Shown piece after piece: positions 47,103-53,189 of a DNA stretch of 64,000 bases. Numbering within the stretch: position 1 is the stretch's first letter; every line of letters begins with the position of its first letter. The notes beneath the pieces are model-generated. The model worked only from the letters and a program-made list of their open reading frames with translations. It had not been told where the DNA came from and ran no database searches. The DNA comes from Zancudomyces culisetae HAW-14-8 (Eukaryota > Fungi > Kickxellomycota), in assembly GCA_052426225.1 (NCBI GenBank), contig JBNJNM010000006.1, forward strand, positions 1,488,001 to 1,552,000. The letters are read 5' to 3'. The translations under genes were made by a program, and so were the position numbers.

Positions 47103-47858
47103 GAAAAAACCCGGTGGGAAAAACGTTTTGACTCTCGAACAACGATAAGAATGTAAGTAACATAAACAACCAAAATTATAAAAAACGTTCTTAAACAATG
47201 TATATTAATGTGTAGTTTTAGCATGAATTATTAAGTTGTAAGTTTCATATAACACAATATGTTGTATGCAAAAGCATCAACTTAAATTTACCGCTTTCAT
47301 TGCAGCAAAATAGCAGAGAAATCAATTTTGAAAAAATTGTTTCCTGCGCAATTCAATTTAGAGTACAAAAATTATGACCATGTTATAAATTTTTGTCAAC
47401 TTTACAGCCAATTTAATAGTACAAATCGATTTATTTTTTAGTCGAATCGATTTTATACTTTATTAGTGGATTTATTTTTAATCAATTTTATTAGTAAATT
47501 ATTAGTATAAATTGAAAAATTTGTAAATCCGACCAAAACCACACTAAAAGTAAAAATAAACATATATAGAGAGGCGTAATACTATTTTTTTAGTGTAAGG
47601 AAAGGGCCATTTTGGCTATATTTTCCAGGTTTTGGGAGGAATTCTTTTAAATAAAATTATTTTTACCAAAAATTGTGGAAATTGTCCAGTTGTGTTCTTT
47701 CCGAGGGGGTTTTATAGATAGTGGTTAACTGGCTAGAAATGGTAAATCCTGTGTCAGTAATAACCACCCTTCTAGGGAACCGTGATTGATATTAGTGGAA
47801 GTTTTTTGGGAAAATCCTATTGGACTAGTACTAAAAAATGAAAACGAATTCAACAAAT

Positions 47859-48194
47859 TGTCGTATGAGAAATACGATGGAACGATTTATCTACCTATTT
47901 TATATTTTATATAATTAGCAGTATTTTTAGATTGGACTTTTTCTCCCCTCGTGGTTTTTGTTCAACATTCATAATTAGGATAGTTTAAATTTAGATTATA
48001 GTTAACACAAAATTATAGGACATATTTGGGGGTTAATACAATCGCCCACAACTTACTTGAATAAAATAACTCTTAACCACATTTAAAATTAGTTAAATAT
48101 AGTATAAACATATAAAAAATAATACATAATATTATACTACACGAATAGAGAAATATATTAAGAAATAATATTAGAACTAGTAAGTTCTACATCA
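47859..48194 (+). repeat. 5' LTR of element 2
   Basis: TGTCGTATG...CTACATCA. Confidence 0.96.
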
Positions 48195-48195
48195 G

Positions 48196-48212
48196 TGGCG
48201 CTCCCAGCTAGG
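48196..48212 (+). promoter_or_regulatory. Primer-binding site (tRNA identity uncertain, possibly Arg)
   Basis: TGGCGCTCCCAGCTAGG 1 nt after the LTR; complementary to a tRNA ending GGGAGCG-CCA. Confidence 0.65.
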
Positions 48213-48311
48213 CCCAATTACTATACAATTTTCAAATATTCAATTATTATAGTAAGTTTAAAAAGAAAAAATAAATAAAAATCAAAAAAAAATATAACAA
48301 GATTACAGAAT

Positions 48312-51300: not shown

Positions 51301-52781
51301 TCGATTCCAAGGAGATAACAGGTAGAGTAGCCCGCTGGGCTATGATCCTGAGAAATTATGATTATACGATTGTGCATTGTAAAGGAAAAAACAATCCAGC
51401 AGACATGCTTTCAAGATTGGGACCTAAAACTCTGGAAGAAAATAGTGAAATCAGCGTTTATTCCTTATCACTTTCAGATTATAACAAAATTAAAAATTAT
51501 ATTACTAATACAATATATCCTGAAAATAGTAGTGAACAAGAGCGCAAAAAGTTGCGAAGTAGAGCAGCAAAATACAAGGTTAGTAATGACAGGTTAGTGC
51601 GAATACTCAAGGGAAACATAAAGAAAGTTTTGCATGAGGATGAAATGAGGAATGTAGTTGAAAATATACACAATGAGAGTCACAACGGAATAAGCAACAC
51701 TTGGGAAAGAATAAAAGATATTTACACTGGAGAAGGCCTATTTGAAACAGTTAAGAATGTGGTAAAGCAATGTCACGACTGTCAGCTATACAAAGGAAGT
51801 CGCGTAAAAAGGAATAACTTACACCCAATCTACACATACAAGCCTTTCAGTATATTCGGCCTTGATGCAGTAGGCCCAATAAGTCCAACATCAAAAGACG
51901 GAAATAGGTTTATATTAACCGGAGTTGATTATTTTACTAGATGGCCGGTGGCACAAGCAGTGGAAAACATTAAATCGGAAACCATAGTAAACTTTATAGT
52001 AACTAACATAGTCCAATATTACGGAGTCCCAGACCAAATAATAACAGATAGGGGAGCGGGATTCATTAGTGAACATGCTTCAAAAGTCTATGATTTTCTG
52101 CAAATAAAACATACCCCCTCCACTGCCTATAGACCACAGAGTAATGGGCAGGTGGAGAGATTAAACCAAACTATGAAGAATATCCTGGTAAAACAGTGCC
52201 GAAAGAACAAGACTGAGTGGGATAAGTATTTATGGAAGACTCTCTTGGCAATACGGACTATGCGAAACAGAAACACAAAATTTAGTCCAGCTGAGCTACT
52301 TTATGGTATCAAACTTGCTACTCCGGCTACGTGGACACCACCACCTGAAATAAGTGACGTAGAACTAGCCATACAAGAGCGGATTGAAGCTATAAAAACT
52401 GACATACCAGAATTAAGAAATGTGGGACTCAATAATAGCAGAGCAGCTAAAGAGAAAGAGCAAGCAGTTTATAACAGAGGAGTAAAACTGAGTGTGTTCA
52501 AAGAAGGTGATATAGTACTCAAATTAACAGAACAACCTCAAGCAAAGCTCGAAAACATTTGGGAAGGTCCGTATAAGGTAACGCGGAGACTAAACAAGGG
52601 AGCATATGTAATAATGGACAGTGAAGGAAACAGGGATTTGGTGAACGGGGATATGTTAAAACTATACCATTACAGTAAATATATGTTGCCCGAGGTAAGT
52701 AACACATTGAAATCCAAGCTAGGAAGGTTCAGAGAGACTCGACCAATGGGTCCAATCTGGAGGCGGGGTTCTGTCGTATGA
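48312..52781 (+). pseudogene. Gag-Pol polyprotein of element 2 with one in-frame TGA at 51051-51053
   Basis: CCHC knuckle CYHCHKEGHRKFEC, VVDTGA protease, FVDD RT, then AHPD*EKEFIVTTDAS continuing in frame to RNase H and integrase (GLDAVG, ITDRG, VERLN, GPY). Confidence 0.9.
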
Positions 52782-53107
52782 GAAATACGATGGAACGATT
52801 TATCTACCTATTTTATATTTTATATAATTAGCAGTATTTTTAGATTGGACTTTTTCTCCCCTCGTGGTTTTTGTTCAACATTCATAATTAGGATAGTTTA
52901 AATTTAGATTATAGTTAACACAAAATTATAGGACATATTTGGGGGTTAATACAATCGCTCACAACTTACTTGAATAAAATAACTCTTAACCACATTTAAA
53001 ATTAGTTAAATATAGTATAAACATATAAAAAATAATACATAATATTATACTACACGAATAGAGAAATATATTAAAAAATAATATTAGAACTAGTAAGTTC
53101 TACATCA
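52772..53107 (+). repeat. 3' LTR of element 2
   Basis: Near-identical to the 5' LTR. Confidence 0.96.
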
Positions 53108-53115
53108 AAATATAT

Positions 53116-53189
53116 GATTTCTTGGTGTAGATGGTTATCACGTCTGTCTAACACACAGACGGTCGCCGGTTCGAGTCCGGCAGAAATCA
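53116..53189 (+). tRNA. tRNA-Val (anticodon AAC)
   Basis: Acceptor GATTTCT/AGAAATC, anticodon arm TCTGT-CTAACAC-ACAGA, T-arm GCCGG-TTCGAGT-CCGGC. Confidence 0.96.

Follow-up and report, generated by a model that had tools for sequence, protein, structure and literature searches.

Insertion at the start sites of tRNA genes is a behavior known for Ty3, Ty3p, Tj1, Tca8, Tyl3, Tyl6 and DGLT-A (PMC5911963). Ty3 of Saccharomyces cerevisiae generates a 5-bp duplication and inserts 15-17 bp from the mature end of the tRNA (PMC5014426); it has a frameshift between gag and pol. A loop of the SH3 domain of its integrase binds TBP and a vestigial chromodomain, integrase residues 446-511, binds Brf1, both being borne on a long linker helix (bioRxiv 10.1101/2021.07.27.453949). 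Insertions of Tj1 in Schizosaccharomyces japonicus are co-oriented and lie 5-11 bp upstream of the mature end (PMC4600332), and the gypsy element Tca8, with its beta LTR, is found 6-30 bp upstream of tRNA in Candida albicans (PMC5911963). DGLT-A of Dictyostelium has a short integrase extension, a TGGCG-type primer site and several sister families all of which target tRNA genes (PMC5006619).

A full-length Ty3/gypsy element occupies 47859-53107 (+) of the Zancudomyces culisetae DNA considered here (the whole 64-kb stretch analyzed is termed the window), on the same strand as the tRNA-Val gene that it precedes. Its best match in spacing and orientation is Tj1; compared by description, Tj1 differs in its 5-bp duplication (4 bp here) and in the stop that separates its gag from pol, which here share one frame. 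The best match in anatomy, again by description, is DGLT-A, as both have a single ORF and a CCHC knuckle and neither has a chromodomain. The short integrase extension, the TGGCG-type primer site and the presence of several sister families at tRNA genes are common to both as well. DGLT-A, whose host is an amoeba, nevertheless lies 10-34 bp upstream in most families (in D. discoideum mean 15; 13-33 bp) in contrast to 7-11 bp here, and its integrase is without the N-terminal extension predicted by the model of the present one (PMC5006619). No protein named DGLT-A is among the matches listed in the protein searches. The likeness to Ty3 consists of the narrow window upstream of intact tRNA genes and the NED-NTD-CCD-long helix-SH3 build of the integrase. 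A Ty3-like helix and SH3 domain are present with no room for a chromodomain, and the 4-bp duplication, non-iMet primer site, lack of a Ty3_capsid hit and single frame all depart from Ty3 proper. Tca8, and Tyl3 and Tyl6 of Yarrowia lipolytica, are likewise gypsy elements at tRNA start sites, but in ascomycete hosts (PMC5911963), and Tyl3 differs further in its 5-bp duplication, iMet primer and two ORFs (PMC5014426).

Literature searches, with most subscription papers, Repbase and supplements outside their reach, returned no account of tRNA-start targeting for the Harpellales, Zoopagomycota or Mucoromycota, and the accessible text of a review of zygomycete genomics (PMC10386755) has no occurrence of 'tRNA'. 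The element probably works like Ty3 or Tj1 and is not Ty3; the behavior is a known one, while the lineage and host are those that the literature searches did not find.

The element before tRNA-Val

The LTRs, at 47859-48194 (+) and 52772-53107 (+), are each 336 bp with TG...CA ends and differ from each other at two positions. AAAT is duplicated at 47855-47858 and 53108-53111, the first A of the upstream copy being also the final base of the preceding LTR unit (C1 below), and 8 nt (AAATATAT) separate the 3′ LTR from tRNA-Val(AAC) at 53116-53189 (+). The tRNA gene is recognized by ARAGORN and by Rfam (62 bits), and its A box, B box and T-run are intact. One nucleotide past the 5′ LTR is the primer-binding site (48196-48213, +), which corresponds to a tRNA 3′ end with discriminator G, is not of the iMet type and may be for an Arg-like tRNA. 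A polypurine tract (52759-52768, +) precedes the 3′ LTR. Gag, a CCHC knuckle, protease, RT, RNase H and integrase are encoded in a single, broken frame at 48312-52781 (+), with Pfam recognizing the Gag, protease, RT, RNase H and integrase domains in the order typical of gypsy elements. The order Gag-PR-RT-RH-IN together with a GPY/F motif is that of Ty3/gypsy elements (Metaviridae), and the TG...CA LTRs, target duplication, primer site and polypurine tract expected of these are all present. The pol reading frame overlaps the first 10 nt of the 3′ LTR, and its product has the C-terminus GSVV-stop.

This copy does not have an intact, transposition-competent pol, its frame being interrupted by a TGA at 51051-51053; at that position W is found in a database protein with 99.5% identity over 636 residues. 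RNase H and integrase would therefore not be made from it unless the stop is read through. The 99.5% protein and many relatives at 50-70% are labeled Zancudomyces culisetae; other relatives are labeled Smittium. The host is an insect-gut fungus of the Harpellales. Overall, the element is a young LTR retrotransposon of the Ty3/gypsy type that carries one stop in pol and forms the innermost unit of a stack.

The window has a second gypsy element, element 1, from 506 to ~5506. It has two overlapping ORFs, an iMet-type primer site, a Ty3-type capsid, LTRs of ~339 bp with one mismatch and a 4-bp duplication, CATT. Situated away from tRNAs, it is inserted in an unrelated repeat, an empty copy of which is present in inverted form at ~38967-40158. 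The host gene for Tra1/TRRAP (8274-20966) is one open frame of 4230 codons with long poly-Q and poly-N runs. The original prediction had set the LTR end at 53107, the AAAT duplication just beyond it and an intact tRNA-Val from 53116, and the LTR and duplication check, ARAGORN and Rfam agree; its non-iMet primer site (the iMet type being that of element 1), its 4-bp duplication, present as AAAT on both sides, and its placing of element 1 as unlinked to tRNA genes, there being none near 506-5506, also hold. Its single-frame gag-pol stands as regards the one frame, but not as regards the continuity of that frame.

Stacks of LTR-like units at both tRNA genes

By ARAGORN, tRNA-Val and an intact tRNA-Ile(AAT) at 61370-61443 (+; also recognized by Rfam) are the only two tRNA genes in the window, and Rfam finds no other Pol III RNA in 37000-64000. 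The DNA 5′ of the full-length element is not host flank but a chain of three LTR-like units, A1-B1-C1, and tRNA-Ile is preceded by a chain of four, A2-B2-C2-D2. Each of the two tRNA genes thus has four units stacked head to tail before it, one whole element and seven likely remnants in total. Outermost are A1 (46567-46818, 3′ end ± ~5 bp) and A2 (59309-59562, 3′ end ± ~7 bp), solo-LTR-like and 87% identical to each other. Between A1 and the full-length element are the solo-LTR-like B1 (46822-47254), with TG...CA ends and a terminal inverted repeat matching at 9/11, and C1 (47260-47855, +), a solo LTR of another family. The solo-LTR-like units that follow A2 are B2 (59568-60030; inverted repeat 8/11), C2 (60031-60800; 10/11) and D2 (60807-61360; 8/11, with an alternative inverted end at 61114). 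Apart from C1, the remnants are probably also on the plus strand; neither pairwise LTR alignment nor base skew gave a call on the strand of the solos. The interior of C2 (60050-60380) is GC-rich, in contrast to the other, AT-rich, LTRs, and has no Rfam match.

When units are removed singly from the tRNA side, each together with one copy of its duplication, the six with clear TG...CA ends leave a 4-bp duplication that matches 4/4 in five cases and 3/4 in one, and each in its turn is at a similar distance from the tRNA: the full-length element at 8 bp, C1 (AATA/AATA) at 7, B1 (AAAT/CAAT, the 3/4 case) at 8, B2 (CAAC/CAAC) at 7, C2 (AACA/AACA) at 11 and D2 (CACA/CACA) at 9. Duplications of 5 bp fit these six less well than those of 4 bp. 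The A units are less sharply delimited: among four options for the end of A1, AATA/AATA matches 4/4 once (7 bp, with a non-CA end) and 2/4 is obtained three times, and the four options for A2 give 3/4 twice and 1/4 twice (10-15 bp). Spacers are locus-specific, of AAT type at Val and CAAC/ACA type at Ile, the same as the bases directly before each tRNA, and the duplications of two units overlap the last bases of the preceding LTR.

Scanning the whole window for abutting units bounded by inverted repeats gave eight calls (six plus, two minus), 8/8 inside the two stacks, and no such junction is present in the ~38 kb of other non-coding DNA. Five calls are intergenic compared with a maximum of two in 200 shuffles (none in 187, one in 12, two in 1), a control that is partly circular since the junction motif was defined from the same ends. 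The rough chance of a random insertion ≤15 bp upstream of either tRNA is 8e-4 per event. A grouping of eight units, six of them clear-ended and at 7-11 bp, just ahead of tRNA genes that are themselves intact is the pattern expected of targeting to Pol III start sites, here at two tRNA loci of one 64-kb window, itself picked post hoc out of many. That insertion at tRNA starts was repeated, by several families and at both tRNA genes of the window, is well supported.

Two public sequencing runs have matches, each with 0.07 of the words, and no RNA run is listed. A low-depth contig from one of them (X1), on which the outside support for C1 depends, is identical to 47711-47858 and then diverges from the window. 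Past the end of C1 at 47855 it has 2 nt and then a TGG primer-binding site whose complement is a tRNA 3′ end with discriminator C, presumably that of a Pro tRNA, and the sequence that follows is absent from the window. The primer site in this position makes C1 a true LTR of another family, confirms its end and gives it the orientation of the full-length element. The stretch where the contig departs from the window at 47858 is neither a second allele nor a polypurine tract; it is the primer-binding site that comes next to a 5′ LTR. No further insertion junction of the main LTR came from the two runs.

Family A has two copies in the window, one per stack, and the innermost Val units are almost or fully identical to their partners (two mismatches between the main LTRs; C1 and the contig identical). 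That the most diverged units are outermost and near-identical ones innermost is what serial insertion predicts. Duplication of one stack as a segment was rejected, because unit A is all that the two share and their tRNAs and spacers differ. C1 and the A pair are repeats by evidence beyond their own ends, and B1, B2, C2 and D2 are recognized by their ends. A further signal comes from the pol proteins of the clade described below, of which some end GSVV, GSVI or GSVA by reading into the LTR (12/326 proteins). At the 5′ end B1 reads VV-stop, B2 and D2 read VI-stop, C2 reads VA-stop, and A1, A2 and C1 read VVC, which suggests that the solo units belong to the clade of the full-length element and are co-oriented with it. 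Against this, B1 and B2 give V-x-stop whichever end is read, and the element 1 LTR likewise starts TGTCGCAT. Away from their ends the LTR units have no sequence in common (a score of 50 for the best non-A pair, shuffle maximum 36), so the indication of clade membership is indirect.

A repeat of ~460 bp is present just 3′ of both tRNA genes, at 53191-53650 (1 bp away) and 61538-61998 (~95 bp away), in opposite orientations and 80% alike. There are decayed copies at 53633-54077 and 54096-54412, no strong copy elsewhere within the window and, with many differences, matches to several contigs of run X1. It is possibly another tRNA-associated element.

The integrase, its tail and its lineage

The integrase model (mean pLDDT 83) has an N-terminal extension, zinc and core domains, a helix spanning 287-325 and an SH3 barrel at 338-388, and structure comparison matches it to PFV and Ty3 integrases. 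Some 35 residues follow the SH3 barrel with no second barrel predicted, the tail having low pLDDT. With no Pfam chromo hit and no barrel in the model after SH3, the element is without the mark of a chromovirus. Its alignment with Ty3 stops at residue 1452 of 1547, short of the Ty3 chromodomain; the Ty3 integrase we take to start near 1012. What does follow SH3 is a conserved tail, M-[IVL]-P-[ED]-[IV]...L-[RK]-S-x-L-x-R-F (52683-52730, +), a candidate targeting peptide located 30-75 nt before the polypurine tract. When the Atlas was searched with the tail region, all clusters that came back were unnamed or of generic SH3 type.

The RT-RH-IN tree comprises 113 of 123 proteins, 10 being dropped for missing domains. 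It places the element in a 12-member clade with support 1.0; element 1 with its plant and algal relatives falls outside, as do chromodomain-bearing relatives, and the link between this clade and the element 1 group is a short branch; deep nodes are short, and Ty3, Tj1 and DGLT-A are in neither this nor any other tree. An integrase tree of 170 of 326 proteins (75% coverage cut), with the tail kept out of the alignment, gives a clade of 41 (support 0.999) whose labels are Zancudomyces, Smittium, Mucor, Rhizopus and Calcarisporiella, with some unnamed. A loose form of the tail motif is found in 29/41 members of this clade, several of the others being truncated, versus 2/129 outside it, and across the five named genera the tail is conserved as protein. 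Several Harpellales database proteins seem to be without RT, probably an annotation artefact of gene models that skip the RT core.

Clade members with flanking DNA were not found: two scans of viral contigs gave 0 loci and two at 28-30%, metagenome contigs three at 26-28% and prokaryote genomes 12 (best 33%), all of them outside the clade. ARAGORN, run on 10 of these 17 loci, found no tRNA, and the tail is in 0 of 9 checked, loci that by lying outside the clade are silent on targeting. A gypsy-like element with 113-bp direct repeats, also outside the clade and with no tRNA near, is at 4228-10873 of a record titled as a bacterial chromosome; it is probably eukaryotic contamination.

Targeting, proposed in the original prediction from one insertion, gains support from the four-unit stacks at 2/2 tRNA genes of the window. 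Independence from Ty3, also proposed there, is partly supported by the missing chromodomain, the separate clade and the higher score of element 1 against Ty3 (401 bits versus 337 for the main element), but has to be read with trees that omit Ty3, Tj1 and DGLT-A. The spacing, 8 bp, is indeed closer than that of Ty3, but with Tj1 and Tca8 having the distances given above it is not unusual (PMC4600332, PMC5911963, PMC5014426).

Mechanism and alternatives

We interpret the locus as a young gypsy element in a stack, of a lineage that probably aims at tRNA start sites via RNA polymerase III initiation factors. Each unit would very probably have been a separate insertion that later became a solo LTR through LTR-LTR recombination, older units decaying in this way and being pushed outward by newer insertions, with which the outermost and most diverged position of A at both loci is in keeping. 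The targeting signal quite probably resides in the tRNA gene and the factors bound to it (A and B boxes, TFIIIC, then TFIIIB) rather than in upstream sequence. Upstream DNA is replaced by each insertion and the site is reused at 7-11 bp from the mature 5′ end, so distance is probably measured from the tRNA gene and the factors on it.

One alternative is that insertion is at the ends of older LTRs, by self-targeting or sequence preference, with the tRNA incidental after a first chance event. While six of the eight insertions do lie next to the end of an older LTR, and in two the duplication extends into the last bases of the LTR before it, every new unit is on the tRNA side with the 7-11 bp kept, the two founding insertions (one family, different tRNAs) had no clear LTR target, the element 1 LTRs have no stack and the target 4-mers differ between loci, all of which makes it very improbable. 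It is very improbable that the outer units are degenerate AT-rich DNA or an assembly artefact, with one real insertion only. Four of them do lack a second copy in the window and the duplications are of low complexity, but an independent contig shows a primer-binding site just past C1, A is present twice, the C2 inverted repeat matches at 10/11 and the duplication chains close at both loci. The host is gene-dense and positions upstream of tRNAs are safe, so one could envisage insertions that strike open AT-rich DNA without targeting and persist where they do no harm, also in view of the window having been picked post hoc. Selection would, however, be unable to hold eight events to a few bases; with the rough chance per event given above and no such junction in the ~38 kb of other non-coding DNA, this is extremely improbable.

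If tRNA starts are targeted, the contact is on balance most likely with TFIIIB, via an SH3 domain carried outward on the long linker helix as in Ty3. The conserved 16-residue tail might stand in for the Ty3 chromodomain, a tentative and somewhat doubtful suggestion; on the evidence of its conservation the tail is the best candidate for the missing contact. A serious contender, somewhat short of even, is that contact is instead through TFIIIC, Pol III itself or another integrase surface, the tail having a different conserved job such as multimerization, nuclear import or a constraint from overlap with the polypurine tract, near which it lies. Ty1 works via Pol III subunits and Ty3 also contacts TFIIIC (PMC5911963); the NED reported to bind TFIIIC (bioRxiv 10.1101/2021.07.27.453949) is resembled by the N-terminal extension predicted for the present integrase. 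On the other side, the 7-11 bp window is much narrower than the ~1 kb one of Ty1, and the tail is kept as protein in Zancudomyces, Smittium, Mucor, Rhizopus and Calcarisporiella. The most far-reaching form of our interpretation, rather unlikely as a whole, is that an old chromodomain-less gypsy lineage of Zoopagomycota and Mucoromycota invented Pol III start-site targeting for itself, that a portable C-terminal peptide of ~16 residues (M-I-P-E-V...L-K-S-x-L-x-R-F) docks on TFIIIB, and that dozens of families contest the few bases at each start site, with tRNA genes pushing out kilobase stacks in which the order of invasion is kept.

Implications

Targeting of tRNA starts is a model for how an integrase chooses its site, and the solved case, Ty3, relies on a chromodomain. 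A lineage without one, at the same window and with a short conserved tail, offers a direct test of how such elements, DGLT-A included, find their sites. Site-directed or safe-harbor integration by means of a short tether is a speculative use, and the pol of the present copy is broken. The stacks are an ordered record of insertions and, if the interpretation is true, the behavior would be extended from ascomycete yeasts and amoebae to early-diverging fungi.
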